Positions 7,751-31,591 are shown, counted from the first letter of the stretch. The stretch is DNA of 31,591 nt from Candidatus Sediminicultor tertius (GCA_003527405.1 DPXH01000072.1:1-31591); one strand, 5' to 3'. Notes: generated by a model from the sequence alone, not told the origin. A program made the numbers and translations.

Positions 7751-7755
7751 GGACA

Positions 7756-7812
7756 AAATTCGTATCTCGTATCCCCGTTTTCACGGGGACAAGTCTTGTG
7801 AATCGTATCTCG
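7756..7812 (+). repeat. 57-bp dispersed element (copy 1) with an internal CCCCGT-TTTC-ACGGGG hairpin flanked by CGTATCT heptamers
   Basis: Identical to 22266-22322; inverted near-copy at 28823-28875. Confidence 0.85.
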
Positions 7813-7878
7813 TTTAGGATTAGTTTGTTGGTTAGTTGGTTAAGAAAAAAGAAGAAAGAATGAAATACGTATTATAAT

Positions 7879-7902
7879 GTAGGGACACGATGCATCGTGC
7901 CC
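7879..7902 (+). repeat. Solo REP-like hairpin, type 2
   Basis: GTAGGGACACGATGCATCGTGCCC: GTAG foot plus imperfect palindrome. Confidence 0.75.
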
Positions 7903-7929
7903 AAAGGACTTGACTGTCTCTGAATTAAG

Positions 7930-8001
7930 GTAGGGGTTCGATTCATCGAACCCGTTAAAGAAATTACCAAATAACCCGGGGCGGATAAATCCGCCCCCTA
8001 C
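7930..8001. repeat. REPIN-like doublet, type 1
   Basis: GTAGGGGTTCGATTCATCGAACCCG (7930-7954) and inverted GGGGCGGATAAATCCGCCCCCTAC (7978-8001). Confidence 0.85.
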
Positions 8002-8048
8002 AGGATAAATATGAAAATACATAATCTTTACGGGGAGAAAAATCAAAG

Positions 8049-9293
8049 ATGTTCTTCTATAAGCTAAAAGATAGGATACTAATTTCCCAATCGGAATACA
8101 GTGAATTAAATAGAATATCCGAAAGCGAAGCCAAAGAGAGCAAAGAAATAATTTATATACTTAACCGGATAAACCCCTTAAAATCCAGAAGATATTTTAG
8201 CATTACCGACCCCTCCCTAATTTTTTTGAAAGAAGAGGGTATCCACCTGCTGCAAAAATCCAAGAAGATTGATTATGATTTACCCTTATGGCTTAATCAA
8301 AGAATAAAAGAAAAAAGAGTGAGTTCACTTAATACCGAATATCCTAACTGGCAAGAGGTATTAACTTATAAATTTCCCTCCCGGTGGAAAGTGAATATTG
8401 TAGGATTGGGTGATGTAGGAGGGGCTCTCCTTACCGGTTTGAGATTATTGGGAGGAAGTTGTATTGAATCTATCGGAATATATGATAAAAATATAAAGGC
8501 GATAAAAAGATGGGAATTAGAGGCAAATCAGATATTTTGTCCTTTTACTGATTACCAATTCCCTGAGGTTTACCAGTTAAGAGAAGAGAATATTTTTGAT
8601 TGTGATATGTTTGTATTTTGCGCAACTGTAGGAGTTCCTTCTTTGGGAGAAGAACAGGAAGATGTGAGAATGAAGCAGTTCGAAGGGAATTCTAAGATAA
8701 TCTCTGATTATGCCCGAAAAGCCCGGGAAAAATCGTTTAAGGGGATATTTGCAATTATCTCAGACCCGGTAGACTTATTGTGTAAAGCTGCTTTTCTAAC
8801 CGGCAATAAAGATGCAAGCGGAGAGTTTGATTTTAAAGGATTGGCAGCAGACCAGATAAGAGGGTATGGGTTAGGAGTGATGCATGCCCGGGCAGTCTAC
8901 TACTCAAAACAAAATCCTGAAACTGCTGAATACAATCGAGAAGGGAGGGCCTTTGGTCCTCATGGCCGGGGTTTGGTAATTGCTAACAGTTTAAAAAAAT
9001 ATAACGAAAGTCTTTCAGAGATGCTTACCGGTCAGACCGTAAAAGCAAACCTAAAAGTAAGGGAGACCGGTTTTAAACCTTATATCGCACCTGCCTTATC
9101 TTCCGGGAGCTATCCCCTTATTGCCACTATGAGTGGAAAATGGCATTATAGTGCAACCTTTATGGGAGGGGTATTTATGGGAGCAAAAAATAGATTGCTC
9201 AAATCAGGGACTGAAATTGAAAGGGTAGACCTTCCGGATATTTTAGTAGAAAAAATTAAGAAAAGTTATCAGGAATTGGGTAATATCTTATAA
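8049..9293 (+). CDS. Divergent lactate/malate dehydrogenase-fold NAD-binding protein with ~110-aa N-terminal extension
   Basis: VNIVGLGDVGG Rossmann motif, YD146 (NAD-preferring), R207-x6-N, SDPVD, GVMHAR, GPHG (His305); GGGGAG RBS. Confidence 0.8.
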   Translation: MFFYKLKDRILISQSEYSELNRISESEAKESKEIIYILNRINPLKSRRYFSITDPSLIFLKEEGIHLLQKSKKIDYDLPLWLNQRIKEKRVSSLNTEYPNWQEVLTYKFPSRWKVNIVGLGDVGGALLTGLRLLGGSCIESIGIYDKNIKAIKRWELEANQIFCPFTDYQFPEVYQLREENIFDCDMFVFCATVGVPSLGEEQEDVRMKQFEGNSKIISDYARKAREKSFKGIFAIISDPVDLLCKAAFLTGNKDASGEFDFKGLAADQIRGYGLGVMHARAVYYSKQNPETAEYNREGRAFGPHGRGLVIANSLKKYNESLSEMLTGQTVKANLKVRETGFKPYIAPALSSGSYPLIATMSGKWHYSATFMGGVFMGAKNRLLKSGTEIERVDLPDILVEKIKKSYQELGNIL

Positions 9294-9295
9294 TA

Positions 9296-9405
9296 ATTAA
9301 AAATTTAAACCGAAAAGCGAAAAACCATAATTCAAAGCGCAAAACTTTTTCTTTCGATAATAAATTTTAAATTTTAAGCTATGGTTTTGCGTTTTACGGT
9401 TTTTG
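9296..9405. repeat. A/T-rich inverted-arm element (MITE-like)
   Basis: Arms aaaccgaaaagcgaaaaaccataattcaaa (9307-9336) and tttaagctatggttttgcgttttacggttt (9373-9402) are imperfect inverted repeats; related arms recur at 17492/17769, 22333/22386 and 25040. Confidence 0.7.
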
Positions 9406-9440
9406 TTATATAACAATTAACGACAAGAGGGAATTATTTT

Positions 9441-10493
9441 ATGGAAAATATTTTTTTGATTATGCCGGGAAAAGTATCGGATAGTTTTGCCGAGATTGTC
9501 AAAATAGCCACTGAAAATTGCCCATTAAAAATTATAAAAACTGTTAAGGATCTTCCCGTTGATTTACAAAATAAAAAGATTATATTTGCTATTGAATTAG
9601 ATGAATGCGGATTTAATCTCCCTCTGTTTGAGATGCTTTTAAAATTAAAGAAAAGGGGAGATAATGTTCTTTCAGGTTCAAGAGCAGTCATTATAATCCA
9701 AAGTTCGAGTGAGTTATTTACCAAGAGCACCGCTCAGAAGATGATTTTTCTAACCAATCAGATGGGGTGCCGGTTCCCCGGTCATCCGGTTGTAGAGGCC
9801 ACTTATAATCTTAATAATTTTCTTACCTGGCAAAAAATATATAACCTGCCTCTTGTAGAGATTTACCGAGAACGGGCCAGGGAATTAGTAAAAAAATTAA
9901 AAGATGAGAACTTAAAATTAATTAATAGACCGAAGATACTTGTATTGCATTCGAGTTTGTTTAAGACATCTAATACTCTTATGCTCTGGAAGATGGTAAA
10001 AGAAAGCCTTGGCGGGGAAGATATAAGAGAACTCCACGTAGAAAATGGAACTGTGGTAGATTGCCGGGGGTGTTCTTATAAAACCTGTATTCATTACAGT
10101 GAAGAAAAAAGCTGTTTTTATGGGGGGATTATGGTAAAAGAAATTCTTCCTGCGATAGAAGAGGTTGATTGTATCATCTGGTTATGCCCCAATTATAATG
10201 ATGTAATATCCGCAAAGCTTATGGCAGTTATAAATAGGATGACTGTACTTTATAAGAGAGTGAAATTTGGGGATAAAACTCTATTTTCCCTTGTGGTTTC
10301 CGGAAATTCAGGGAGTGATTGTGTGGCTAAACAGCTAATAGGGGCTTTAAATATTAACAAAGGATTCAGACTGCCTCCTTATTTTGCTTTAACTGCTACT
10401 GCCAATGACCCCGGGTCAATAATGAATGTCCCGGGGGTAGACCAAAAAGCAAAAGAATTCGCTGAAAACATAAAAAGAGAGATTAAAAAATAA
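9441..10493 (+). CDS. Tandem flavodoxin-fold protein; C-terminal half resembles NADPH-dependent FMN reductase / iron-sulfur flavoprotein
   Basis: KILVLHSS...TSNT (FMN phosphate-loop-like), C208xxC211x4C216x8C225, IIWLCPNYND, VVSGNSG; N-terminal half looks like a degenerate second flavodoxin fold. Confidence 0.75.
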   Translation: MENIFLIMPGKVSDSFAEIVKIATENCPLKIIKTVKDLPVDLQNKKIIFAIELDECGFNLPLFEMLLKLKKRGDNVLSGSRAVIIIQSSSELFTKSTAQKMIFLTNQMGCRFPGHPVVEATYNLNNFLTWQKIYNLPLVEIYRERARELVKKLKDENLKLINRPKILVLHSSLFKTSNTLMLWKMVKESLGGEDIRELHVENGTVVDCRGCSYKTCIHYSEEKSCFYGGIMVKEILPAIEEVDCIIWLCPNYNDVISAKLMAVINRMTVLYKRVKFGDKTLFSLVVSGNSGSDCVAKQLIGALNINKGFRLPPYFALTATANDPGSIMNVPGVDQKAKEFAENIKREIKK

Positions 10494-10511
10494 AGAGATT
10501 TAATTTGTATT

Positions 10512-11540
10512 ATGCAGAAGAAAGATATTAAAAATTTTAGCTTAAACGAACTTCAGGAAGAGGTTAAAAATTTAGGGGTTGAAAGATATAGGGCAGCTCA
10601 ATTATTTAATCTGCTTTACAAAAAGGGCATAGAAGACTTCAGAGATATGCTGAGCCTACCAGCAGCATTTAGGGAATTACTTCAAGAAAATTTTTACATA
10701 AGCAAGATGGAGCTGGTAAATTTAGCCAAATCGAAAGACCAAACCGAAAAATATTTATTTAAGTTAGAAGATGGAAATTTAATAGAAAGCGTTCTCATAT
10801 TTTCTGGTAAAAGAGTGACCGAATGTATATCTTCCCAAATCGGCTGTAAATATAACTGTTTGTTTTGTGAAAGCGGCAAAAAAGGTTTTACCAGAAACCT
10901 TACGGTTAGCGAGATTTTAAATCAAGTTTTATTTGTAAAGAAAAAGATCGAATCTAATCTCAATAATATTGTATTTATGGGTATTGGTGAGCCTTTAGAT
11001 AATTATGATAATGTGGTAAAAGCCATCTGTATATTGAATTCTAAAGATGCTTTCAATATCGGGGCAAGAAAGATTACCATTTCTACCTGTGGGGTAATAC
11101 CGGCTATAAAAAGGTTACAAGAGCGTAATTGGCAGGTGGAGTTATCAGTTTCTCTGCATGCTCCGGAGAATAAACTAAGGTCTTACCTGATGCCGGTAAA
11201 TAATATGTATCCCTTACCCGATCTGATAGAAGTATGCAGGAATTATGCGGAAAAAACTAAAAGGCAGATTACTTTTGAATATATTTTAATCAAAGGAGTG
11301 AATGATTCACTGATTTACGCAGATAAATTAGCTAAACTGATTGGCGGATTTAATTCTAAAGTAAATCTAATTACCTTTAATCCTGCGCCCGATTCTTTAC
11401 TGCAGGCACCCGGTATTTCCCAAGTCAAATCCTTTAAAAATAAGCTGACAGCCGGGGGAATCCCAACCACTATAAGAATATCAAAGGGTGATGATATCTC
11501 TGCTGCCTGTGGACAGCTAAAGAGCCTGCACCTAAAATAA
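10512..11540 (+). CDS. rlmN: Dual-specificity RNA methyltransferase RlmN (radical SAM)
   Basis: DQTEKYLF, CISSQIGCKYNCLFC (CxxxCxxC), MGIGEP, SVSLHA, TFEYILI.GVND, KVNLI.FNP, DISAACGQL. Confidence 0.92.
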   Translation: MQKKDIKNFSLNELQEEVKNLGVERYRAAQLFNLLYKKGIEDFRDMLSLPAAFRELLQENFYISKMELVNLAKSKDQTEKYLFKLEDGNLIESVLIFSGKRVTECISSQIGCKYNCLFCESGKKGFTRNLTVSEILNQVLFVKKKIESNLNNIVFMGIGEPLDNYDNVVKAICILNSKDAFNIGARKITISTCGVIPAIKRLQERNWQVELSVSLHAPENKLRSYLMPVNNMYPLPDLIEVCRNYAEKTKRQITFEYILIKGVNDSLIYADKLAKLIGGFNSKVNLITFNPAPDSLLQAPGISQVKSFKNKLTAGGIPTTIRISKGDDISAACGQLKSLHLK

Positions 11541-11614
11541 GTTACCAGGGTATAGGCGATACGCCCCTATTTTTTACCTGTTATCCGATACTTGTTTTCA
11601 CAAGAAGGGCAAAG

Positions 11615-11691
11615 GTAGGCGCACGATGCATCGTGCCCCTGATAATCAGAATACAATAATATAAGAAGGGCACAATTCATTGTGCCCATAC
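11615..11691. repeat. REPIN-like doublet, type 2
   Basis: GTAGGCGCACGATGCATCGTGCCCC (11615-11639) and inverted AGGGCACAATTCATTGTGCCCATAC (11667-11691). Confidence 0.8.
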
Positions 11692-11783
11692 AAAATAGCA
11701 CCTGATTTCTTTATTTTCTTTCTTTCCCTATTATTTTTTAACCAGCTAATCAGGTAACCAACTAACCAAATAACTAATTCCTA

Positions 11784-11814
11784 ACGCAATACGCAATACG
11801 CAATACGCAATACG
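11784..11814. repeat. Perfect heptamer tandem array (ACGCAAT)4-ACG
   Basis: Read directly: acgcaat acgcaat acgcaat acgcaat acg. Confidence 0.9.
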
Positions 11815-11823
11815 AAAATATTC

Positions 11824-11851
11824 TTGACTTTATAAACATATCTGATATACT
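11824..11851 (+). promoter_or_regulatory. Sigma70-type promoter of the tRNA gene
   Basis: TTGACT (11824-11829), 16-bp spacer, TGnTATACT (11843-11851), 25 nt upstream of the tRNA. Confidence 0.65.
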
Positions 11852-11876
11852 TTTAACGAAGATAATGTTAGCTAAC

Positions 11877-11952
11877 GGGCCCATAGCTCAGCTGGCAGAG
11901 CAACCGGCTCATAACCGGTCGGTCCCTGGTTCGAATCCAGGTGGGCCCACCA
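11877..11952 (+). tRNA. tRNA with CAT anticodon, most likely tRNA-Ile2 (lysidine-modified)
   Basis: 76 nt: acceptor GGGCCCA/TGGGCCC + ACCA, D stem GCTC/GAGC, anticodon arm ACCGG-CTCATAA-CCGGT, T arm CCTGG-TTCGAAT-CCAGG. Normal G1-C72 pair (not initiator); C4/C5 acceptor pattern resembles Ile2 rather than elongator Met. Confidence 0.92.
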
Positions 11953-12047
11953 GAAATTGGTAATTATTAATTTTATTGATAATAGATAATACAGGTAGTG
12001 TGGAATTTATGATAAAACAAAAAATTATAAAAATACCAGAATATTAT

Positions 12048-12088
12048 AAAAACCTTACTTCTTTTATATAAGAAGTAAGGTTTTTTTG
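12048..12088 (+). terminator. Intrinsic terminator after the tRNA
   Basis: aaaaaccttacttctt-ttatat-aagaagtaaggttttttt: long perfect stem plus U-tract. Confidence 0.85.
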
Positions 12089-12134
12089 TTTTAAAGGGCT
12101 TTACAGCTGTGAAGAGAGGAGGAAGGAGTTATTA

Positions 12135-12848
12135 ATGGAAGAACAATATGATATCCTTTTGGAATTACAGAAAATCGATATTGATATCGATAAAGAAGAG
12201 AAAAAGAAGAGAAGTCTTCCTTCAATAATAGCAGGGATCACCAAAAAGATTCAGGGGATAAAAGATAGTTTAAAAAATAAGAATGAAGATTATAAGAGTT
12301 TGCAGATTAAATTGAAGAGAAAAGAATTGGATTTAGCTGAAAAATCTAATAAAATTAGCAAACATCAGGAGGATTTATACGGAGGGAAGATATCTGATAT
12401 AAAGGAGCTTAAACAGATACAGAAGGTCATAGCCAAGTATGAAGAAGAAAAAAATGGTATTGAAGAAGAAATTTTGGACATTATGGAAGAAATAGAAGAT
12501 CTTAATAAATCAATTTATAATCTCGAAGAAGATTTGAAAGGCAAAGAGAGAGAATTCAAAAAGTGCCAAGAGGAAATAGACTCAGCAATGATAGTAATTG
12601 AAAAGAGCACGAGTTCTTTAAATATCAAAAGAGAAGAAATATTAAATAAAATAACCGATAGCCGCCTTTTAAAAGAATATGAACTTTTAAGAAAAGAGAA
12701 GGGCGGAAAGGCTATTATGGAAGTTGACGGTTCTATCTGTCCGGGCTGTTATCTCGACCTCCCCAGCGATGTTATTTATCAATTAGAAAAGAATCGTAAA
12801 ATAATAATTTGTCCCAATTGCAGCCGAATTCTAATCTGGAAAGATTAA
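12135..12848 (+). CDS. Coiled-coil protein with C-terminal C4 zinc ribbon (DUF164 / CT398-HP0958-like)
   Basis: LLELQKID N-terminus, long heptad-rich helix, GGKAIMEV..SICPGCYLDLP...IIICPNCSRIL; AGGAG RBS. Confidence 0.88.
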   Translation: MEEQYDILLELQKIDIDIDKEEKKKRSLPSIIAGITKKIQGIKDSLKNKNEDYKSLQIKLKRKELDLAEKSNKISKHQEDLYGGKISDIKELKQIQKVIAKYEEEKNGIEEEILDIMEEIEDLNKSIYNLEEDLKGKEREFKKCQEEIDSAMIVIEKSTSSLNIKREEILNKITDSRLLKEYELLRKEKGGKAIMEVDGSICPGCYLDLPSDVIYQLEKNRKIIICPNCSRILIWKD

Positions 12849-12898
12849 CTCAAACCTCGATACGAATTTTTTCTGATTCTCGGTTTCTATTATCTTTG

Positions 12899-13043
12899 CG
12901 AGATACGTTCACGAGATACAATTTCGTTGTTCGTATCTAGTATCTCGAAAGAAAAATAAATTCAAATACACAACTTTTTTAATTTTTAAATATTTTAACT
13001 ATTTATTTCTTTGCGAGATACGATTCACGAGATACGAGATACG
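12899..13043. repeat. Cluster of CGAGATA heptamer arrays in both orientations, related to the 57-bp element
   Basis: cgagatacgttcacgagatac (~12899), ttcgtatctagtatctcg (~12929), cgagatacgattcacgagatacgagatacg (~13014-13043). The flank gattctcggtttctatta is shared with ~28799. Confidence 0.7.
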
Positions 13044-13054
13044 CATTAAGTTAA

Positions 13055-13083
13055 TTGACTTTATCAGGTTAAAATGATATTTT
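13055..13083 (+). promoter_or_regulatory. Putative sigma70 promoter of rnpB
   Basis: TTGACT (13055-13060), 17 bp, TGn-TATTTT (13078-13083). Confidence 0.5.
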
Positions 13084-13105
13084 AAAATTGAAAAAAAGAA
13101 TATTT

Positions 13106-13471
13106 GATAAGTAGGTCAGGTAATCGCGGAAGAAATAACATTTCTTCCGAGGAAAGTCCGAGCTCCATAGGGCAGAGTGCTGGGTAATCCCCAGTGAGGG
13201 TAACCTTAAGGAAAGTGCTACAGAAAATACACAGCCGGGAACTCTATTTTGAGTACTCGGTAAAGGTGAAAAGGCAGGGTAAGAGCCTACCAGTTGTTAG
13301 GTGACTAACAAGCTTAGTAAACCCCACTCGGAGCAAGACCAAATAGGAAGAGCTGTGGTGGCCCGCTGAATCTTCGGGTAGGTCGCTAGAGATGTAAGGT
13401 AACTTACATCCCAGATAGATGATTACCACCCTTATAAGGGGACAGAACTCGGCTTATACGATCTACTTATC
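13106..13471 (+). ncRNA. rnpB: RNase P RNA, bacterial type A
   Basis: GAGGAAAGTCCGAGCTCC, AGTGCTACAGAAAA, GGTGAAAAGG...GGTAAGAG, GGAGCAAG.CCAAATAGG, CGGGTAGG, TAGAT..ATGATTACC, ACAGAACTCGGCTTA. Terminal P1 pairing gataagtaggtc / gatctacttatc. Compensatory change in P11 (GTGCTA / TAGT..AC). Confidence 0.97.
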
Positions 13472-13486
13472 AAAATAAATTAATAT

Positions 13487-13527
13487 AAAGACATACGATA
13501 AAACATTTTATTGTATGTCTTTTTTTA
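13487..13527 (+). terminator. Intrinsic terminator after rnpB
   Basis: aaagacatacgataaaa-cat-tttattgtatgtcttttttt hairpin plus U-tract. Confidence 0.8.
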
Positions 13528-13719
13528 TTTTATCCCATCCAGATATTCTTTGTGAGAATTAACTTAATCACTGAAAATGGGTCGGAAATACGCTCAGAAA
13601 TAGCGTATCTACTATAGAGAAGACGCTAAATATGGGGTTTTTTAAAATTTTTTAAAAAAAATTAAATTATTTTCAAAAAAAAAGAGGGTTTTTTAAAAGA
13701 ATGTAGTATACTATATGTA

Positions 13720-13745
13720 GTGGAGCAAAGTGGAGCAAAGTGGAG
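13720..13745 (+). promoter_or_regulatory. MraZ operator: three GTGGAG boxes at 10-bp period
   Basis: GTGGAGCAAA GTGGAGCAAA GTGGAG, just downstream of a TATACT -10-like box (13707-13712) and upstream of mraZ; matches known MraZ direct-repeat boxes. Confidence 0.85.
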
Positions 13746-13767
13746 GATATAATATAAAGGAGATTTT

Positions 13768-14199
13768 ATGTTTTTAGGACAGTATGAGCACTCTATCGAT
13801 GAAAAGGGAAGAGTGATTGTGCCGGCAAAATACCGGGAATCTTTGGGTGATAATTTTATTATCACTTTCGGTCTCGATACTTGCCTTTTTGTGTATCCTC
13901 TGGAAGAATGGAAAAATTTATCAGAAAAAATGAAACAGCTTCCCCTGGGGCAGAGAGATGCCCGGGCATTTAAGCGGATACTATTTTCCCGGGCCACTGA
14001 TTGCACCATGGATAATCAAGGCAGAGTCATTATTATGAAATATCTGAGAGATTACGCCCGGATTAATAAAGAAATTATAATTATTGGTGTTTCAGATAGG
14101 GTAGAGATCTGGAGTAAAGATGTATGGCAAAAATACTCTAAAGAGGTTGAAGGCTCATATGAGGATATTGCCGAAAGAATATATGAACAAGAAGGGTAA
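13768..14199 (+). CDS. mraZ: Division/cell wall cluster transcriptional repressor MraZ
   Basis: MFLGQYEHSIDEKGRVIVPAKYR...DNQGRVII...IGVSDRVEIWS (two DxxGR motifs). Confidence 0.97.
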   Translation: MFLGQYEHSIDEKGRVIVPAKYRESLGDNFIITFGLDTCLFVYPLEEWKNLSEKMKQLPLGQRDARAFKRILFSRATDCTMDNQGRVIIMKYLRDYARINKEIIIIGVSDRVEIWSKDVWQKYSKEVEGSYEDIAERIYEQEG

Positions 14200-14202
14200 T
14201 CT

Positions 14203-15132
14203 ATGGTAAATTCCTTTCACACTCCTGTGTTAACAAAAGAGATCTTAAGTTATCTAAACATAGAGAAAGGAGGTGTTTATATCGATTGCACTTTAGGAGG
14301 TGGAGGACACTCCAAAGCCATTTTGGAGAACATTTATCCCCACGGCTTAGTAGTCGGCATCGACCAGGATATAGAGGCAATTGAAACAGCAAAAGAAGAA
14401 CTGAAAAGGTATATCGATAAAGTAAAATTAGTTAAAGGTAATTTTAAAAATTTAGAAGGAATTCTATCAGACTTAAAGATTGAAACAGTTTCGGGGATAG
14501 TCTTTGATTTAGGAGTGTCCTTCCACCAATTAAAAGAGAAAGAACGAGGATTCAGCTTTAAAAAAGACAGTCATTTAGACATGCGGATGGATCTAACCCA
14601 AAAATTTAACGCTGATACCCTGATAAATAGTTATCCGGAAAAAGATTTAACTGAAATATTTGAAAAATACGGAGAAGAACGGTTTTCCGGGAGGATTGCC
14701 CGTTTAATCGTAACAGAACGAAAAAAGAAAGCCATCACTACCACCAAGCAGTTAGCTGATTTAGTAGTAAGGTCTCTTCCCAGGGCTAAAAAAAGACGCA
14801 CCTGGAAAATTCATCCGGCAACCAGGGTTTTTCAGGCTATCAGGATTGAAGTAAACCAGGAGCTTAAAGCCCTGGAAAGCGGGCTGAATCAGGCAATTAT
14901 GGCTTTAAAGGATAAGGGTAGGATATGTGTTATTTCCTACCATTCATTAGAGGATAGGATAGTTAAACACCTGTTTAAGGAAACAGAAAAAGAAGGGAAA
15001 GAACAAAAGAATTACGGATTGAAGATTATAACTAAAAAACCGATTAGACCTTCTTCGGAGGAAGTAAGGGATAACCCCAAGGCAAGAAGCGCTAAACTGA
15101 GAGTAGCGGAGAAAATAATATCTGTAAATTAA
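14203..15132 (+). CDS. rsmH: 16S rRNA m4C1402 methyltransferase RsmH (MraW)
   Basis: HTPVL, DCTLGGGGHS, DLGVS, LDMRMD, HPATRVFQAIRIEVN, ISYHSLEDR, NPKARSAKLR. Confidence 0.97.
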   Translation: MVNSFHTPVLTKEILSYLNIEKGGVYIDCTLGGGGHSKAILENIYPHGLVVGIDQDIEAIETAKEELKRYIDKVKLVKGNFKNLEGILSDLKIETVSGIVFDLGVSFHQLKEKERGFSFKKDSHLDMRMDLTQKFNADTLINSYPEKDLTEIFEKYGEERFSGRIARLIVTERKKKAITTTKQLADLVVRSLPRAKKRRTWKIHPATRVFQAIRIEVNQELKALESGLNQAIMALKDKGRICVISYHSLEDRIVKHLFKETEKEGKEQKNYGLKIITKKPIRPSSEEVRDNPKARSAKLRVAEKIISVN

Positions 15133-15168
15133 TTAGCGGCTAACGACTAATTAAAGGAGTGATGAAAT

Positions 15169-15609: not shown

Positions 15610-15648
15610 TATACTTGTAGCAGTATAGGTTAAAGAGGGCGGAAATAG

Positions 15649-17334: not shown

Positions 17335-17960
17335 GTATATCGTATATCGTAAAGAGAATAGAAGACAGAATTCAGAAGTCAAAATAGTATCACGTATCGC
17401 GTATCGCGCGAAGAAAAAAGCGGATAGCGTGGAGCGTATAGCATATAGTGTAGAGTAAAATTAGCGTATAGCGTAAAGGGAATATAGCGAAAAATTAAAA
17501 GCGCAAAGCGCAAAATCATAGCGCAAAACTAAAAATAAAAAAAGTAGTAGTTTATATAATTGTATTAAAAAATCTAAAACAAAAAATAAAAAGTGTAAAA
17601 TTATACACTCTTCTGTCATTCCCACGAAAGTGGGAATCAAGTGTTAGAAGATAAAAAAAAGATGGATTCCTATTTTCATAGCCATGACAAAAGATATGAG
17701 CAATAAAAAAAGATAAGAAAAAAATGTTGTACAGAGTATTTTTTCCTATACGCTAAAAGCTGAATAGGTTTTAAGTTTTGAATTATGGTTTTTCGCTTTA
17801 CGCTTTAAGTTTTTAGTTGGTCAAAACGTATCAAAAGACTGCCCCTGGCACGCATTGAAACGCAATACGCAATACGATATACTATATACGAGATTTAACT
17901 GGAGAACGGGCGTCTTATCTTTCATACTATACGCTAAACGCTGTACGCTATACGCTATTT
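17335..17960. repeat. Composite repeat-built spacer (ftsI-murE)
   Basis: GTATCGC and TAGCGTA heptamer arms (17336-17474), A-rich arm (17492-17535), GTCATTCCCACGAAAGTGGGAATC (17615-17638) with degenerate inverted partner (17663-17689), T-rich arm (17769-17818), reverse heptamer arms (17858-17957). Confidence 0.75.
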
Positions 17961-17980
17961 ATAATATTGAGGTATTTTTT

Positions 17981-19453: not shown

Positions 19454-19457
19454 AAGA

Positions 19458-20891: not shown

Positions 20892-20901
20892 GGAGGAGAT
20901 A

Positions 20902-21855: not shown

Positions 21856-22505
21856 CGTGGAACATAGAGTAAAATTAGCGTACAGCGTACAGCGTAGAGC
21901 GTGGAGTTAGAGAAAAGAAGTAGACGAAATATAAAAACCAATTTCCCTCTGTCATTCCCACGAAAGTGGGAATCCAGGAGTGAAAGATAAAAAAAGATAT
22001 ATTTGCGTTTTCACGGGAATGACAGAGAATAACTCGGGGTGGATAAATCCGCCCCCTACAGGAAATAAAAGCCTGCAAATAGGCATTTTATAACAAATTA
22101 GTGAAATTTAATTTTAAACTGGTTAACCAAGTAATTGAGTGAATTATAAAAGAAGGGCACAATTCATTGTGCCCCTACGCCTGAACCTTATTTCTTTAAC
22201 GCGATACGCAGTAGGAGAGTGGATTGAAACGCAAAAAGCAACACGATATACTGTATGCGAAGTTTAAATTCGTATCTCGTATCCCCGTTTTCACGGGGAC
22301 AAGTCTTGTGAATCGTATCTCGGAATATCGCGAAAAATTAAATGCGCAAAACTATAACTTAAAATTCAAAATTAAGAGAGAAAAGTTTTTAGTTTTGAAT
22401 TATGGTTTTTCGTTTTTAGTTTTAACTTTTTAGTTACTATACTGAAAACTGTCAACTGAAAACCTGTATTTAATACTAATGACTATTCACTATTCACTAA
22501 CGACT
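21856..22505. repeat. Composite repeat-built spacer (mraY-ftsW) at the usual murD position
   Basis: TAGCGTA arm, ATTCCC-N8-GGGAAT pair (21951-22023), reverse REPs (22036-22059, 22154-22178), 57-bp element (22266-22322), A/T-rich arm pair (22333-22435), ACTATTC heptamers. Confidence 0.75.
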
Positions 22506-22525
22506 AATTATGGGGTTAATTTGAG

Positions 22526-23641: not shown

Positions 23642-23644
23642 TTA

Positions 23645-24754: not shown

Positions 24755-24804
24755 AAAAATAAGAATTATTTTACCAACAAAGCAGGATAATTAATAATTT
24801 TATT

Positions 24805-25180
24805 GAAACTATAATATAGTATCGAGTATAGAGTATATAGTGAAGAAAGAAGAAGACAGAAGCCAGTATTCGGAAGCCAGAAGTAGGGGTTCGATTTATC
24901 GAACCCGCCAAATAAAATTAGTAAAATAACTCGAGGCGGATGAATCCGACCCCTACAAAATAAAATCATAAGTTTTTGAGTGTAGATATCTCTCCTGTAG
25001 TACTCTACGCTAAACGCTGTACGCTATACGCTAGAGAGGTTTTGAATTTTGAGTTATGATTTTTCGTTTTAAGTTTTTAATTTTAATTACATGTTCGTTT
25101 GATTTATAAAATCCGTATAAACAAATAAACATAGAAATTTTCCTAAATAAATCTGAACGCGATACGCGATACTCGATACT
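24805..25180. repeat. Composite repeat-built spacer (murG-murC) containing a type-1 REPIN-like doublet
   Basis: GTATCGA arm, REP 24883-24907 and inverted REP 24933-24956, TACGCTA arm, T-rich arm 25040-25088, GCGATAC arm 25155-25180. Confidence 0.75.
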
Positions 25181-25205
25181 AAAAAAAGGGGTGGAATTAT
25201 ATTTA

Positions 25206-26594
25206 ATGAATGAAAAAAAATTACACATACATTTTATTGGAATTGGCGGCTCGGGAATGAGCGGCTTAGCCTCAATACTTCTTGATTCGGGTCATAAGAT
25301 AAGTGGTTCTGATATTGTAACTTCAAAGATAACTAAAAGATTGACCGATAAAGGGGCAAATATTTTTAAGGGTCATAATGAAGATAATGTAGAAGGAGCA
25401 GATTTAGTAGTAGTTTCCTCGGCAATCCCCGCATCTAATTCGGAAATAACTGGTGCCAGGGACAGAAAGATTACCACAATCAAAAGGGCTGAAATGCTGG
25501 CAAGGCTTATGGATAATAAATATGGAATAGCCGTTGCCGGTACACACGGCAAGAGCACCACTGCTTCCATGATAAGTCTCTTATTAGAAAGGAACGGGTT
25601 CGACCCCACCGTAGTAGTAGGAGGAGAGTTAAACAATTTTAAAAATAATGCTAAATTAGGGAAAGGGAATCATATAGTTGTAGAAGCCGATGAAAGTGAT
25701 GGTTCATTTTTGGAATTGAATCCCCAGATGGTTATAGTTACTAATATAGAAGATGACCATTTAGATCATTATGAAAATCTGGAAAATATTCTGAAAGATT
25801 TTAGGAAGTTTATTAGTAATGTCCCCGATAACGGACGAATTATCTTGTGTAAGGACTGCGATAATGTAAAAGAACTGGTAAAACAATGTGAGAGAAGTTA
25901 TGTTTCTTACGGAATATCTACCGAAGCGGATCTTATGGCTAAAGATATAGAATTAGATAAGTTAAGTTCTAAATCAAAGATATACTGGCGGGGCGAAAAA
26001 ATGGCCGAACTTTATTTGAAGGTTGCCGGATATCACAATATTCTAAATGCTTTGGCGGCAATTGCTGTTGCTCTGGAACTGGGGATAAGTTTTAGGGAAA
26101 TTGCTAATACATTGGAAACTTTTCGAGGGGTACATAGAAGAATGGAAATTATTGCTAATTTGGACGACAAAATATTGATACTCGATGATTATGCTCATCA
26201 TCCTACCGAGGTTAAAACAACTTTGAGCGCCTTAAGAAGCAGCTGGCAAAACAGAAGAATAATCGCTGTATTTCAACCTCACCGCTACAGTAGAACCAAA
26301 CTTTTAGCGGAAAAGTTCGGTAAGGTATTTTTTGATGCTGATTACGTAATTATCAATGATATTTATTCCGCCAATGAATCACCGATATCCGGAATCAGCG
26401 GAGAAACCATATTTAAGGAAGTAAAAAAATCCAATCATAGGCAGATAAAATATTTGCCTTCCAAAGATGATATTTTAAGTTATTTATGTGAAATTATTCA
26501 AACGGGAGATATAGTAATAACTATAGGGGCAGGAGATATTTGGACGGTTGGACAGGAATTAGCTCAAAAATTAAAAAAAACAAAGGGATTTTAA
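25206..26594 (+). CDS. murC: UDP-N-acetylmuramate--L-alanine ligase
   Basis: HFIGIGGSGMSG, GSD, AGTHGKSTT, EADESD, HLDHY, GVHRR, DDYAHHPTE, FQPHRYSRT, GAGDI. Start is ATG 25206 or GTG 25191. Confidence 0.97.
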   Translation: MNEKKLHIHFIGIGGSGMSGLASILLDSGHKISGSDIVTSKITKRLTDKGANIFKGHNEDNVEGADLVVVSSAIPASNSEITGARDRKITTIKRAEMLARLMDNKYGIAVAGTHGKSTTASMISLLLERNGFDPTVVVGGELNNFKNNAKLGKGNHIVVEADESDGSFLELNPQMVIVTNIEDDHLDHYENLENILKDFRKFISNVPDNGRIILCKDCDNVKELVKQCERSYVSYGISTEADLMAKDIELDKLSSKSKIYWRGEKMAELYLKVAGYHNILNALAAIAVALELGISFREIANTLETFRGVHRRMEIIANLDDKILILDDYAHHPTEVKTTLSALRSSWQNRRIIAVFQPHRYSRTKLLAEKFGKVFFDADYVIINDIYSANESPISGISGETIFKEVKKSNHRQIKYLPSKDDILSYLCEIIQTGDIVITIGAGDIWTVGQELAQKLKKTKGF

Positions 26595-26606
26595 TATTAT
26601 TGGAAA

Positions 26607-27521
26607 ATGAATATAGATATTATAAAAGATGAGTGCAAAAGACAAGGAATTAGCCGTATAATTAAATACGATGAGCCATTAAATAATCATACTTCATTAA
26701 GAATTGGGGGATCTGCTGATATTTTTTGCAGCCCTAACAATATCGAAGATTTAAAAAAAGTCGTTTTTATTTCTAAAGAACATAATATGCCTTTCCGGGT
26801 TATGGGAAATGGAACAAACTTATTGATTTTGGATGGCGGGATAAGAGGTTTGGTGATTAATCTAAATAAAGATTTTAAAAAAATAGAATTTTCTGATAAA
26901 ATTATAAAAGTAGGTGCAGGAGTCTCATTAGCACTCTTAAGCAAGATGGCTTTGGATAGAGAATTGAGCGGGTTAGAATTTGCCTGTGCCATTCCCGGGG
27001 CTTTGGGCGGAGCAATAATTAATAATGCCAGTTTTAAAGGAGAATGCATGGCAGATGTAGTACAAAATGTAACTTTTTTAACCCGGGAAAATAGAATAGA
27101 AAAAATATCCAAATCTAATTTGAATTTTAATTATCGTGAATGTAATTTAAAGAGTGAGTCGGTAATAATTTTAGAAGCAACTCTGATGTTGAAAAAGGGG
27201 AATAAAGAAGAGATTGAATCTAAGATAAAACAAAATATTGAAATCAGGAAAACCAGCCAGCCTTTGGATAAATTCAGCGCGGGAAGCATATTTAAAAATC
27301 CACCCGGTTATTATGCCGGAGAATTGATCGAAAAGGTTGGAGCGAAAGGGTTAACTCGAGGTAAAGCGGAGGTCTCTACCAGGCATGCTAATTTTATTGT
27401 GAATAATGGTGGTGCGTCAGCCAGAGATATTCTATATTTAATTGAAGAGATTGAGAAAAGAGTAACGAAAAATTTTGGAATAAAATTAGAGCGCGAAATA
27501 GAAATTTGGGGAGAACCCTAA
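26607..27521 (+). CDS. murB: UDP-N-acetylenolpyruvoylglucosamine reductase
   Basis: HTSLRIGG, GNGTNLL, GLEF..AIPG.LGGA..NNA, SAGSIFKNP, HANFIVN, LEREI. Confidence 0.97.
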   Translation: MNIDIIKDECKRQGISRIIKYDEPLNNHTSLRIGGSADIFCSPNNIEDLKKVVFISKEHNMPFRVMGNGTNLLILDGGIRGLVINLNKDFKKIEFSDKIIKVGAGVSLALLSKMALDRELSGLEFACAIPGALGGAIINNASFKGECMADVVQNVTFLTRENRIEKISKSNLNFNYRECNLKSESVIILEATLMLKKGNKEEIESKIKQNIEIRKTSQPLDKFSAGSIFKNPPGYYAGELIEKVGAKGLTRGKAEVSTRHANFIVNNGGASARDILYLIEEIEKRVTKNFGIKLEREIEIWGEP

Positions 27522-27526
27522 TTTCA

Positions 27527-27838
27527 GTATCGCGTATCGCGTGAAGAAAATCAGAAATCAGGAGTCAGAATAAATTAGTATCGAGATAGTATTTAGTATG
27601 TAGTAGCATCACGACATTGCCGTGATGAAGCCAAAAGGCAGAATAGAAAATAGCGGGTAGTGTATAGGGATAGAATATATAGTAGTAAGTAGGGGTTCGA
27701 TTTATCGAACCCGCCAAATAAAATTAACCAAATAACTCGGGGCGGATAAATCCGCCCCCTACAAAACAAAATCATAAATTTTAAAGTGTAGATATTTCTC
27801 CTGTTATGCTCACGTTAAACGCTGTACGCTATATGCTA
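27527..27838. repeat. Composite repeat-built spacer (murB-ftsQ) containing a type-1 REPIN-like doublet
   Basis: GTATCGC arm after the stop codon, REP 27689-27713 and inverted REP 27739-27762, TACGCTA arm; right half closely resembles 24882-25033. Confidence 0.75.
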
Positions 27839-27863
27839 ATATCAAAGGGGATTTTCAATATAA

Positions 27864-28676
27864 GTGAATATAAAATTAGATGACGAGGATAAAGAAAGAG
27901 ATACAGAGGAGGAGGAAGAGGAAGAAGAAGGCAGAAGGAATCAGCCTTTAGCATTGAGAGTCACCAAAATATTAATTTTTTATCTGGCTTTAGGTTTTTT
28001 GGGTTGGAATTTTTTTTCTTTTATATTCAGTTCAAATTTTTGCAACATCAAAGAGGTCATTATTAAAGGCAATGATTATCTGAGTAAGGATGAAATATTT
28101 TATAAGTCCGGGATACAATTAGGCGAGAATATCTTTAAGTTAGATCTGAAAAAATCTATGGATTCCTTAAAACAAGAACCCCGGATAAAAGAAGTAGAAA
28201 TAAAACGGGTGATACCTAATAAAATCATTATTTCCTTAAAAGAAAGAAAAGCGGCGGCAATTGTCCACATCGGAGAAGAGTATTATTTTTCCACTAAAGA
28301 GGGAATAATTTTATCTAAAAGTGATAAACCGGAGGAAGAGTTTGTCCTGCCCCTGCTATCAGGATTAGAGATTGATGGAATAAAAATAGGAGAAATTATA
28401 GATAAACCTGAATTTAGGCTGGCATTAGAAGGCATTAATTCAGCGGAAGTGATATTACCCAGGAGATTTTGCCGGGTAGAAATATTATCCCCGGACGATT
28501 TTATGATTTGCAATGAGGATAATACCTTAAAAGTTAGAGTTAATAGGCCAGAGGTAATTATTAGTAAAGAAAATTTGTTAAGAGAAGCACTGGAAAAAAT
28601 TGAAAGGGGAAAATTATTAGTAGACTATATAGATATTCGCTTTAAAGACAGCCTGGTAATAAAATTAAAAAAATGA
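27864..28676 (+). CDS. ftsQ: Cell division protein FtsQ/DivIB
   Basis: Charged N-terminal tail, one TM, POTRA-like (I.EVII.GN..LS..EI...NIF..DL...P.IKEVEIKRVIPNKIII.L.ER), C-terminal YIDIRF; upstream of ftsA. GTG start uncertain. Confidence 0.88.
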   Translation: MNIKLDDEDKERDTEEEEEEEEGRRNQPLALRVTKILIFYLALGFLGWNFFSFIFSSNFCNIKEVIIKGNDYLSKDEIFYKSGIQLGENIFKLDLKKSMDSLKQEPRIKEVEIKRVIPNKIIISLKERKAAAIVHIGEEYYFSTKEGIILSKSDKPEEEFVLPLLSGLEIDGIKIGEIIDKPEFRLALEGINSAEVILPRRFCRVEILSPDDFMICNEDNTLKVRVNRPEVIISKENLLREALEKIERGKLLVDYIDIRFKDSLVIKLKK

Positions 28677-28822
28677 TGTTTATAAATTTGTAAAATAAAA
28701 GATATATGTTAGTATAAACTTTACTGGAGTAGTTAGATAAAAAAGAATAACATTGCTTTGTTTCCTTCTTTACCTAATACCCAATAAGAATTTGTTTTGA
28801 TTCTCGGTTTCTATTAGCTTTT

Positions 28823-28875
28823 CGAGATACGATTCACGAGACTTGTCCCTGTGAAAACGGGGATACGAGATACGA
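28823..28875 (-). repeat. 57-bp dispersed element, inverted copy
   Basis: Reverse complement tcgtatctcgtatccccgttttcacagggacaagtctcgtgaatcgtatctcg differs from the 7756 and 22266 copies at 2 positions. Confidence 0.85.
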
Positions 28876-28887
28876 GATTTTAGTCTG

Positions 28888-28916
28888 TTTACTTTAATTT
28901 CTCAGTAGTGTATGAT
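28888..28916 (+). promoter_or_regulatory. Putative internal promoter for ftsA-ftsZ
   Basis: TTTACT (28888-28893), 17 bp, TATGAT (28911-28916). Confidence 0.45.
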
Positions 28917-28938
28917 ATTTTTAAGCATGCAGGAGGTT

Positions 28939-30183
28939 ATGAATATGGGAATGGATGAAATTGTAGTCGGTCTGGATATAGGTTCCGGAAAAGTATGTAC
29001 AGTTGTAGGTGAATTAGGTGTGGGTGATGAGATAGAAATTATTGGCGTAGGTACATCCCCCTCCCTGGGAATAAGAAAAGGAATAATTATTGATTTGGAA
29101 CAAGCCATACAATCAGTAAAGGAATCTATTGAAAGCGCTGAACGTATGGCAGGAACTCGCATTAATTCTGCTTTTGTCTCTATCGCAGGAAGTCATATAA
29201 CCTCTGTAAATAGCAAAGGAGTTATTGCTATTTCCGGAGAGTCCCCGGAAATTACGGAAAATGACATTGAAAAGGTTATAGAAGCGGCTAAAGCAGGAAT
29301 AGTTTCTTCCGAGAAAGAATTAATTCATACCTTAAGCCGCGAATTTATAGTTGACGGCCAGAGCGGAATATCGGATCCTCTGGGAATGTCGGGGGCAAGA
29401 TTGGAGTGTAAAGTTCATATTATAACAGGTTCAATTACCGCTGTGCAAAATTTAGTTAAATGTGTAGAAGGAGTGGGGTTGGACATTGAGGAAATAATTT
29501 TTGGAACCTTAGCCTCCAGTAATGCAGTTTTAAGTAATGCCGAGAAAGATTTAGGAGTTTTATTAATTGATATTGGTGCGGGGACTACTGAAATAGCAAT
29601 TTTTGTTGAAGGGGGATTGGCTTATTCTGCAGTTCTACCGGTAGGAGGCATTCAAATAACTAATGATTTAGCCGTTGGTTTAAGAACTTCTATAGAGGAA
29701 GCCAAAAAGATTAAAATTAACTATGGAAGCGCAGTTGAAAAGAGTGTTTCTCCTGAAAAATTAATAGAGATTCTCAGTATAGACGGAAAGGACAAACATA
29801 ATGTATCTCAAAAGTACCTGGTAGATATAATTGAGCCCCGGGTAAGTGAAATATTTAGTTTGGTAAGAACTGAAGTTAGAAAATCCGGGTGTTATAATAT
29901 GATTCCCGGAGGAATAGTTATAACCGGAGGAAGTTCTTTACTGCCCGGTATCTCAGAGGTTGCAGAACAGGTCTTAAATTTACCCTCTCGATTAGGGAGA
30001 CCTCACTACGAAGGGGAGTTAGCAGATATGATAAACGACCCATCCTATTCTGAAGCAATTGGATTATTAAGTTTTGCTACCGAAAAATATTCTATCGGAA
30101 GATCATTCCACTTAACCAAAAGAAAAGCGGGAGCAAAAAATATTTTTACTCGAATCATTAATTGGTTGAAAGATTTTTTTTAG
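28939..30183 (+). CDS. ftsA: Cell division protein FtsA
   Basis: GLDIGSGKVC, GIRKG.I.D, DPLGMSGARLE, IDIGAGTT, GG..ITNDLA, ITGGSSLL.G. Start set at ATG 28939 after AGGAGG. Confidence 0.97.
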   Translation: MNMGMDEIVVGLDIGSGKVCTVVGELGVGDEIEIIGVGTSPSLGIRKGIIIDLEQAIQSVKESIESAERMAGTRINSAFVSIAGSHITSVNSKGVIAISGESPEITENDIEKVIEAAKAGIVSSEKELIHTLSREFIVDGQSGISDPLGMSGARLECKVHIITGSITAVQNLVKCVEGVGLDIEEIIFGTLASSNAVLSNAEKDLGVLLIDIGAGTTEIAIFVEGGLAYSAVLPVGGIQITNDLAVGLRTSIEEAKKIKINYGSAVEKSVSPEKLIEILSIDGKDKHNVSQKYLVDIIEPRVSEIFSLVRTEVRKSGCYNMIPGGIVITGGSSLLPGISEVAEQVLNLPSRLGRPHYEGELADMINDPSYSEAIGLLSFATEKYSIGRSFHLTKRKAGAKNIFTRIINWLKDFF

Positions 30184-30240
30184 TTTTTTTATTGCCATTA
30201 AATGGGCAAATATTCCATTATTTGTGGGGGAGGTTATAAA

Positions 30241-31299
30241 TTGTTTAACCTTAATAGTAAAGTAGGAGAATTTATCGAGATAAAGGTAATCGGTATAGGC
30301 GGCGGCGGCGGAAATGCGGTTAACAGAATGATTGACGCGAAATTACAAGGGGTTAATTATATTTCGGCTAATACCGATGCTCAAGTGTTAGCCTTTTCTA
30401 ATGCAGAACAAAAAATACAAATCGGCAGTAGGATAACCAAAGGTTTGGGTAGTGGATCGGATCCTGAAATTGGCCGTAAAGCTGCGGAAGAAGACAAAGA
30501 CAGGATTACTAAAACTTTAAAAGGAGCGGATATGGTATTCATCACCGCTGGAATGGGTGGCGGAACAGGAACCGGTGGTGCCCCTATCGTTGCTCGGATA
30601 TCCAAAGATTTGGGTGCTTTAACGGTGGGAATGGTAACCAAACCTTTTTCTTTTGAAGGCCATAAAAGGATGAAACAGGCTGAGGAAGGAATAAAATTAT
30701 TAAAAGAATGTGTAGATACTTTAATCGTAATACCCAATGATAGATTACTTCAGATTGTCGAGGAAAATACTTCTGTATTGGATGCTTTTAAAATTGCTGA
30801 TGAAGTTCTGCTGCATGGTATTCAGGGAATTACCGAAATCGTAGTCGAACCGGGTTTAATAAATGTAGATTTTGCGGATGTTAAAATGATTATAGAAAAT
30901 GCCGGCACAGCTATAATGGGATTGGGAAGAGCCAGCGGTGAAAACCGGGCTGTAGAAGCAGCTCAAAGAGCTGTAAACAGTCCAATTTTAGATACAAAAA
31001 TCGATGGAGCTAAAGGATTGTTGTTTAATATCAGCGGAAGTACAAGTTTAACTTTGCATGAAGTTAATAAAGCTGCTGAAATAATTTCTAAGGCAGCTAA
31101 TCCGGAAGCTAATATTATTTTTGGAGCGGTAATTGACAAAGGGTTAAATGACGAAGTGAAGGTAACGGTAATAGCTACCGGATTTGAAACCTTAGACAGA
31201 ATCACAGAAGAACCCAAGTTTGAGGAGATTGACTTCGATAAAGATAAGATAAGTTATAATGATTTAGATATTCCTACTTTTTTAAGGGAGAAAAAGTAA
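30241..31299 (+). CDS. ftsZ: Cell division protein FtsZ
   Basis: [43 protein letters not shown]-terminal DIPTFLR. Start set at TTG 30241 after GGGGGAGG. Confidence 0.98.
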
Positions 31300-31303
31300 G
31301 AAA

Positions 31304-31591
31304 TAGCGTGGAGCGTACAGCGTTTAGCGTTTAGGTTCGGGCTGCAAGTACAAGATTAATTAGTCTACCGATCTTCCAGTCTACCAGTCAGCCAATCAAA
31401 TTAGCCGTTAGTAATAGTTAGCGTAGAGCGCATAGTAATTTAGTATCGAGTATCGCGTTATAGTTAACCAGTTTAAAACTAGATTCCACTAATTTGTTGT
31501 CAGAAAATGACCTTTTGGCAGGTTTTATTTCTTGTAGGGGGCGGATTTATCCGCCCCTTTTTTAGTAACTTTAAGAGCGGGTTCGATAAAT
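31304..31591. repeat. Repeat-built region after ftsZ, ending in an inverted type-1 REPIN-like doublet truncated by the window edge
   Basis: tagcgtggagcgtacagcgtttagcgt, agtatcgagtatcgcg, GTAGGGGGCGGATTTATCCGCCCC (31534-31557), then cgggttcgataaat at the edge. Confidence 0.7.

Follow-up and report, generated by a model that had tools for sequence, protein, structure and literature searches.

Gene-less heptamer arrays between cell-division genes of Candidatus Sediminicultor tertius as probable remnants of the inverted arms of PF05635 four-helix-bundle cassettes

A four-helix-bundle gene lying between inverted repeats is known from the intervening sequence (IVS) of the Coxiella 23S rRNA gene, where the S23p gene is found in a 28-bp terminal stem together with tandem GACAGAT heptamers of varying number (Warrier et al. 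2016, PMC4990558). For this IVS, excision by RNase III, decay of the gene and a proposed mobile origin are described as well (PMC4990558). Tandem heptamers between genes are known from Xanthomonas, whose intergenic GGGAATC arrays include about 70 in convergent pairs and were not connected to a named gene family (Rehm et al. 2015, PMC4692102), and the genome paper of Geobacter metallireducens interpreted paired tandem hepta- and octanucleotide sites as regulator sites (PMC2700814). In this paper we analyse period-7 tandem arrays in a stretch of 31,591 nt from Candidatus Sediminicultor tertius (GCA_003527405.1, DPXH01000072.1:1-31591), which as a whole is called the window below, and relate them to cassettes built around genes of the PF05635 (23S_rRNA_IVP) family. 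Such cassettes have only partially been described in print, namely by the Coxiella IVS and by the arrays of Xanthomonas and Geobacter, and in the literature we found no paper tying heptamer arms to PF05635 genes outside rRNA.

The reading we favour, with a probability of roughly 0.6, is that the window arrays are gene-less and partly orphaned inverted arms of PF05635/TIGR02436 cassettes, accumulated and reshuffled in places where they do little harm. What we observe directly is the homology, polarity, site polymorphism and cross-phylum spread of the arms. The window is contig C70 of a metagenome-assembled genome (MAG) of 1.47 Mb in 217 contigs, which is about 80% complete, has 33% G+C and finds its nearest named relatives among Atribacterota MAGs. 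As all compared genomes are MAGs, absences are provisional. The genome under study is referred to as G000, and G001, G004, G009, G010, G017 and G033 are relatives. The plus strand of the window carries a division and cell-wall cluster (mraZ, rsmH, an ftsL-like gene, a penicillin-binding protein (PBP) gene, murE, murF, mraY, ftsW, murG, murC, murB, ftsQ, ftsA and ftsZ), several junctions of which are 235-670 nt long. Repeated 14-mers cover 30-70% of the spacers vs 12% of the coding sequence; 14-mers were used, 12-mers being uninformative in this AT-rich genome.

The sequence-only reading of the window had placed period-7 arrays right after stop codons and reverse-complement arrays just ahead of the next gene, and every array coordinate it gave was recovered by Tandem Repeats Finder and by direct reading. 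In the whole genome, 75 arrays with at least three CGTA/TACG repeats have period 7, periods 4-6 and 8-11 being unrepresented, while doublets number 386 (206+180) at period 7 vs 0-7 at the other periods. When read backward the pattern matches only 0+1 times genome-wide, as opposed to 55+43 times for the true pattern. Based on crude open reading frame (ORF) calls, 269 of 288 arrays (about 93%) are intergenic. Aligned arms yield the unit profile (C/A)GT(A)(T)N(G/T), in which the GT positions carry 1.5-1.75 bits, and the median arm has 3.6 units.

In the window the types CGTAYNN, AGCGTAN and AGTATNN are counted as forward and their reverse complements as reverse. Genome-wide, with the flanking genes as reference, the half of the spacers next to the stop holds 73 forward (CGTAYNN-type) vs 19 reverse arrays, the half next to the start 49 reverse vs 7 forward arrays, and wherever a spacer has both kinds the forward array precedes the reverse one (20/20). 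Because an inverted pair is identical on both strands, the orientation relative to genes and the forward-then-reverse order represent a single test. The claimed polarity clearly holds genome-wide. The idea that arrays bracket the spacers stands as a tendency but not as a rule, since several window spacers (7751-8048, 11541-11876, 28677-28911 and 31300-31591) have one kind only. The supposed minimal version after rsmH, a single CTAACGACTAA unit (15133-15150), is too short to judge, is without statistical support and is indistinguishable from chance.

It had also been proposed that such arms flank small genes resembling the 23S-IVS four-helix-bundle protein, and this was borne out in the present genome, in its congeners and in other phyla. 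The genome harbours 10-11 PF05635 genes, several of which contain internal stops. For eight of ten, a forward array is found on the left at a distance of 27-100 nt and a reverse array on the right, and the flanking genes, wherever called, are co-directional with the PF05635 gene. Arms are retained even around decaying genes with one to three internal stops (C101:2872-3180, C27:4949-5230 and C68:27820-28110). In the fold of the C128 cassette a 24-bp stem between the arms encloses the gene (z -3.9). The encoded protein of about 120 aa belongs to TIGR02436 ('four helix bundle protein') and matches the pentameric XCC0516 (PDB 2GSC) at 8e-24. Its match to Avd of the diversity-generating retroelements (DGRs; NF033474) is weak, with E-values of 6e-7 to 1e-10 that are below the cut-off, and it is taken as a distant relative of Avd.

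Comparison by blastn of the window with the arms and leader of the cassettes L001-L009, L047 and L068 gives identities of 92-100% over 24-116 nt. At the left of the mraY-ftsW spacer a forward AGCGTAC arm is followed by a 116-nt module (21876-22024, array proper 21877-21905), and both correspond to the left arm and 116-nt module of the C101 pseudogene cassette (89-96% identity). The terminal reverse arm of the same spacer (ACTATTC/ACTAACG, 22465-22513) is the right end of the TAGTGAA-type cassettes of congeners. The reverse arrays at 12893-13043 are 97-100% identical to arms of CGTATCT-type cassettes, and those at 11739-11814 match the right arms of the cassettes L001, L002 and L051. A 57-nt module, consisting of a CGTATCT arm with a 22-nt hairpin (7755-7812), has at least 14 copies in the genome with 96-100% identity. 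Eleven of these lie 0-93 nt past a co-oriented stop, usually followed by a purine-rich AGAAGNC module, two are reversed ahead of a start, and one (22266-22322) is forward in mid-spacer. As far as sequence can tell, the window arrays and the arms of PF05635 cassettes are the same thing, and the shared arms of the gene-bearing cassettes support the proposal that the arrays are arms of an element family. The window copies have no gene, as had been noted, and are thus derivatives of the heptamer-armed cassette, not full members.

Presence/absence polymorphism at the same sites, which the sequence-only reading had suggested looking for, was found at the mraY-ftsW and ftsQ-ftsA junctions of congeners. 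In congeners with FtsW 90-94% identical, the mraY-ftsW gap ranges from 48 to 670 nt. G001 has 48 nt with only a reverse array, other congeners have 86-128 nt with mini-hairpins, G009 and G017 have 542-552 nt with an intact PF05635 gene between AGCGTAC-type arms, and the genome under study has a gene-less mosaic of 670 nt; in the sister family of the order the gap is 40-66 nt, without arrays. At ftsQ-ftsA, 13 congeners have a gap of 51-54 nt, whereas G000 and G004 have one of 235 nt. The extra stretch of about 183 nt (28709-28886 in the window) is flanked by TTAGT/TAGT, the sole candidate target duplication that could be resolved, and contains a reverse 57-nt arm module (28823-28880, reverse-type array at 28861-28878) and no forward arm. 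The murG-murC gap measures between 36 and 436 nt, and four congeners have an arm-loop-arm hairpin of 85 nt there. While the genes of G000 and G004 are about 96% identical, their murG-murC and murB-ftsQ spacers are unalignable. In most congeners the murB-ftsQ spacer contains stacked forward arrays and purine-rich leaders and no reverse arm.

The cassettes are not confined to this group. A scan of species-representative genomes with an alignment of five cassette proteins gave 80 loci with 63-93% protein identity, in Atribacterota, Planctomycetota (Sedimentisphaerales, Pirellulales), Omnitrophota, Desulfobacterota (Smithella) and others. Pooled with the loci of relatives, 103 loci have complete flanks. 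At 83% of these, at least three 8-mers of the upstream flank recur in the reverse-complemented downstream flank, whereas mismatched loci give 22% and direct comparison gives 21%. A clean tandem run is present in 102 flanks, in 96 of which period 7 dominates, and the unit is identical in both arms at 60 of 76 loci. The PF05635 gene is co-oriented with its upstream neighbour at 101 of 106 loci and with its downstream neighbour at 93 of 94. Each of the arm classes CGTATYG, CGTATWT, CGTATCT, CGTGAAG, AGTATNN and TAGTSRW occurs in several phyla, and on the protein tree 15 changes of arm class are needed vs a mean of 45 (minimum 39) in shuffles. Because kin share labels, this agreement demonstrates linkage and not co-evolution. 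In many Pirellulales and Sedimentisphaerales MAGs the cassette is found at one junction, just upstream of a DnaJ-like gene starting MAKRDYYEVLGV (loci L083-L086, L093, L094, L097, L098, L125 and L131, all Planctomycetota), which could reflect either an old insertion or a preferred site.

Whether the spacers fold as long stems, as had been supposed, depends on the spacer. Four window spacers fold better than shuffled sequences (z -6.5, -8.2, -3.6 and -5.0), and in three of these the arrays pair mutually. Besides the C128 cassette, a stem of complementary termini is predicted for the spacers 17335-17980, 24755-25190, 27522-27863 and 9294-9440, in the last of which the arms pair weakly. Only four to five window spacers fold end to end, and those with an orphan arm do not. 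Similarly, the suggested nested cargo was confirmed in so far as period-8, purine-rich and hairpin modules occur between and also inside the arms, but the nesting is not strict, the order in 17335-17980 being a b c ... c' a' b'.

Read along the host genes, a full cassette would comprise, in this order, a forward arm (3-5 units), a short leader rich in purines, the gene and the reverse-complement arm. It would be inserted in sense, past the stop codon of the preceding gene and ahead of the following gene's ribosome-binding site, and in this position transcription of the operon probably runs through it. The window spacers may be regarded as mosaics, produced when cassettes were repeatedly gained and lost the gene and, in many cases, one arm, when 20-60-nt modules were shuffled and when small hairpins were secondarily inserted into arms. 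The cassettes are possibly selfish inserts, presumably co-transcribed with their neighbours, which might be tolerated because they fall precisely between one cistron and the next. If both arms have survived, the transcript could fold as a long stem and, by analogy to the 23S IVS, be cleaved by RNase III, which the sequence-only reading took as a possible influence on gene stoichiometry. Only 5-11% of the sampled sequence words occur in RNA runs. The complementarity of the arms would be kept at the DNA level, either because the arms are copied or because GT-core units are recognised symmetrically, and not by selection for RNA pairing.

A number of results weigh against this derivation or parts of it. 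A tblastn search of the window with 40 cassette proteins (E up to 5) gave no credible gene remnant, the best hit having an E-value of 0.05, so that descent from gene-bearing copies is argued from the arms and one leader module. The cassette contains no transposase or integrase, its sole product being the four-helix-bundle protein, TTAGT is the only candidate target duplication, and no close relative of the cassette-protein subfamily was found on the viral contigs searched. While nearly all congeners have 14-166 array matches (G010 only 2), in G001 (53 matches) and G033 (109) arrays are abundant and no PF05635 gene was found, in incomplete MAGs whose assemblies often break at repeats. A resident gene is therefore not needed; either arrays outlive the gene or the genes lie in unassembled repeats. 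Spacers with orphan arms do not fold in excess of shuffles (z 0.1, 0.06 and -1.6). Of the strict arrays in gene-less spacers genome-wide, only 22% have an at least 85% complementary partner in the same spacer vs 17% in other spacers, and because this rate is hardly above the control we dropped the view that every spacer is a hairpin. In the gene-bearing cassettes arm mismatches are G·U in 59 cases vs A·C in 57. As selection on the sense RNA should favour G·U, this equality suggests maintenance at the DNA level or both strands counting equally, and there is no sign that pairing of the sense RNA is what keeps the arms alike. Finally, the array past the murB stop is kept in most congeners with the unit type changing, which resembles maintenance and not decay.

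A different explanation is that the arrays are working cis-elements: multi-site RNA or DNA platforms for an oligomeric protein, possibly the ring-shaped four-helix-bundle protein acting in trans, which would control how mRNA is processed, how stable it is or how it is translated where cistrons meet, and which would be kept by selection. The preserved forward array after murB would fit well, and so would the conserved core of 4-5 nt with a variable remainder, the 3-5 units per arm and the strict positioning only a few bases from stops and ribosome-binding sites. The paired Geobacter sites were likewise interpreted as sites of a global regulator (PMC2700814). Arm type also co-varies with protein clade, but linkage alone would lead to the same result. 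Against it, spacer content at one site is wholly different between genomes whose genes are 96% identical, many congeners have empty gaps of 48-54 nt at these junctions, and arrays also occur in genomes in which the protein gene was not found. We consider this explanation unlikely, although it is the main rival.

A related and rather doubtful idea is that the GT-core arrays are wrap-around sites for the pentameric four-helix-bundle protein, each subunit taking up one unit, as TRAP does with its triplet repeats. If this were true, cassette and gene-less arrays would form a transposase-free system, with an undescribed mechanism of movement or with a small protein acting in trans at many operon boundaries, including those of the cell-division cluster, and the over-representation of heptamers among the long repeats of bacterial intergenic DNA would be explained.

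The arrays could also be simple-sequence repeats (SSRs) that arose by slippage in place, with inverted pairs formed by template switching and genes that merely land there. Heptamer SSRs are indeed over-represented between genes in many bacteria and form convergent pairs in Xanthomonas (PMC4692102), and unit number and type vary among congeners at a fixed site. Against slippage, however, speak the arm classes that accompany 65-77% identical proteins across phyla into GC-rich flanks, a 57-nt compound module in at least 14 near-identical copies, a 183-nt block present or absent as a unit, and the fixed forward-then-reverse polarity, which slippage would not lead one to expect; we regard it as improbable. 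That the reverse-type modules ahead of genes are mainly portable promoters is very improbable. The two copies of one module (17854-17898 and 22223-22267) do contain TTGAAA-N17-TATACT (10/12 matches), and reverse arrays are also found ahead of the genes for the tRNA and for RNase P RNA, but promoter-like matches are frequent in this AT-rich DNA (90 found vs 63 expected), most reverse arrays are without these hexamers, and neither the forward arrays nor the enclosed genes are accounted for.

The remaining features of the window, read from left to right, are on the plus strand, except for the arrays at 1943-1970, 11739-11814 and 12893-13043 and the unit after rsmH, to which no strand is assigned. 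An orphan reverse-type array (CGATACT x4, 1943-1970) lies about 140 nt upstream of a NifU-like gene. This gene of 73 aa (2109-2330, plus strand; PF01106, E 8.5e-29) does not appear in the 80-aa ORF list, which has only an antisense ORF at this place (2038-2349, minus strand). The forward CGTATCT-type arm at 7755-7812 (array at 7761) begins 5 nt past the stop of a 1641-aa gene, is split by the 22-nt hairpin insert and has no reverse partner in its spacer. The hairpin (stem CCCCG...CGGGG) occurs inside this arm type at 7772-7795, 22283-22306 and, on the minus strand, 28840-28863. A period-8 array GTTAGTTG follows in forward form (7823-7842). Its reverse form TAACCAAC (11739-11774) is part of the orphan reverse arrays at 11739-11814, which include ACGCAAT x4.4 (11784-11814) and end 63 nt upstream of a tRNA gene (11877-11949). 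Between them, at 9294-9440, lies a small, complete and gene-less hairpin, in which a forward AAAGCGC-type arm (about 9305-9349) pairs with a reverse arm (9364-9414) in the minimum free energy fold, with z only -1.2. The GAGATAC-type reverse arrays (12893-12920 and 13009-13043) are 65 nt upstream of the RNase P RNA gene (13108-13473). This RNA and the tRNA are the only hits of an Rfam search of the window. Apart from the division cluster the window encodes a CAAX protease, NDK, the NifU-like protein, the 1641-aa multidomain protein, an LDH-like protein, an FMN reductase, rlmN, the tRNA, a CT398-like gene and RNase P RNA.

Within the division cluster, a stack of forward arrays (GTATATC, GTATCGC, AGCGTNN and AAAGCGC; 17335-17535) stands directly past the PBP stop, with arrays of the three forward types at 17335-17489. 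It is followed by a stack of reverse arrays at 17739-17958, which includes those at 17860-17958 and ends 22 nt before the murE ATG (17981); pairing with 17420-17535 is predicted, and the whole spacer has z -6.45. The right part of the mraY-ftsW spacer (22203-22513) is a mosaic of reverse-type modules and the second forward 57-nt arm module, up to the terminal reverse arm. One reverse-type module is common to both spacers (17854-17898 and 22223-22267), with TTGAAA-N17-TATACT in both copies and in weaker form at 11778-11822. There is no murD between mraY and ftsW (21856-22525), neither here nor in any sampled relative (loci L012-L040). Since murD is also lacking in the sister family with its 40-66-nt gap, the empty slot is old and the repeats are not its cause.

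Past murG a forward AGTATNN array (24811-24841) is joined to a purine-rich AGAAGNC module (together 24811-24880). The reverse side of this spacer (25001-25180) comprises TACGCTA x4 (25006-25033), a period-8 module (25039-25089) and ACGCGAT x3.3 (25157-25180), the last of which is separated from the murC start by 10 nt and has 24817-24841 as its partner in the predicted fold (z -3.6). The forward arrays GTATCGC, AAATCAG and TAGTATN (27527-27605, including a forward-type array at 27527-27542) begin 6 nt past the murB stop, and a reverse ACGCTNN array (27806-27838, reverse-type array at 27811-27838), 25 nt before the ftsQ start, pairs with 27590-27605 (z -5.0). Forward arrays are also found past the ftsZ stop (31301-31460), namely TAGCGTN x4.4 (31304-31334) and AGCGTAG/AGTATCG (about 31420-31460, forward-type array at about 31443), with a partner that is beyond the contig end or absent. 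Separate GC-rich hairpins of the repetitive extragenic palindromic (REP) type occupy the same spacers as the arrays. Copies of a GC-rich hairpin GGGGCGGAT..ATCCGCCCC are found at 31530-31565, 7978-8005, 22036-22060 and 27739-27771; only the copy past ftsZ, with which the cluster ends, has a T-run behind it and resembles an intrinsic terminator, and the copies within operon spacers have the opposite, non-terminating orientation. The only strong plus-strand intrinsic terminator of the cluster is the one past ftsZ, which is consistent with read-through of the spacers by the transcript.

If the arrays are indeed remnants of PF05635 cassettes, the window represents a late stage, in which about one tenth of a conserved cell-division operon is gene-less cassette debris with a far faster turnover than the genes. 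Long spacers in MAG operons therefore need not hide missing genes, which should be kept in mind in annotation. A single cause might then underlie three loose ends: the excess of intergenic heptamers in bacteria, the paired arrays of Xanthomonas and Geobacter, and the very large four-helix-bundle family, first noticed in 23S rRNA IVSs, that is a functional orphan.

Several known systems were compared with the arrays. A CRISPR is excluded by anatomy. REP or REPIN elements with REP-associated tyrosine transposases (RAYTs) do not apply, the arrays being contiguous tandem units and not palindromes, and neither do the G-quadruplex heptamer SSRs of Xanthomonas and Nostoc, the unit (C/A)GT(A)(T)N(G/T) having no G-runs. 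The arrays are no 23S rRNA IVS proper, as they lie between protein-coding and small-RNA genes, and the assembly contains no 23S rRNA. The genome encodes one RNase III, four Y1 transposases (Y1_Tnp) and two reverse transcriptases, none of which is found in the cassette flanks examined, and nothing links the Y1 transposases or the reverse transcriptases to the arrays. With DGRs there is the weak Avd match in common, but the contigs with the reverse transcriptases (C174, C180) carry no cassette, and a template/variable repeat pair was not noticed.

In 2008 Elhai and colleagues reportedly described dispersed small repeats of Nostoc that are nested in tandem heptamers, an account not known to include a four-helix-bundle link. 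The 22-nt hairpin in a heptamer arm (7772-7795), which has spread jointly with the arm to at least 14 sites, is similar, but phylum and sequences are different. Like MITEs (miniature inverted-repeat transposable elements) and non-autonomous elements of the foldback type, the gene-less derivatives outnumber the gene-bearing copies by more than 10 to 1, have inverted ends, are present or absent at orthologous sites, and include near-identical dispersed copies of one module and one possible target duplication of 4-5 bp. In contrast to these, there is no transposase in the full form, the elements are not conserved as a whole, their ends are tandem arrays and many have only one arm. No related autonomous element with a transposase was found, the full-length cassette encoding nothing but the four-helix-bundle protein.

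The arrays of Xanthomonas and Geobacter resemble those described here in their tandem units of period 7 or 8, in being about 90% intergenic, near gene ends and often convergent at a variable distance, in lying mostly between co-directional genes, and in differing in length and sequence among close relatives. The respective papers interpret them as G-quadruplex formers or regulator sites without an enclosed gene family, whereas the arrays of this genome have AT-rich GT-core units without G-runs and are tied by sequence to PF05635 cassettes. Compared with the 23S rRNA IVS of Coxiella burnetii (helix 45) and Leptospira, the elements of the window differ in their location between protein-coding, tRNA and RNase P RNA genes, in arms which are themselves heptamer arrays, and in lacking the gene and often one arm, and it is for Coxiella that excision by RNase III has been demonstrated. 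They share with this IVS an S23p/PF05635 gene in the full-length relatives, terminal inverted repeats that would form a stem around this gene, gene-adjacent heptamers that vary between strains, decay of the gene, and a mobile origin that has been proposed without an enzyme.

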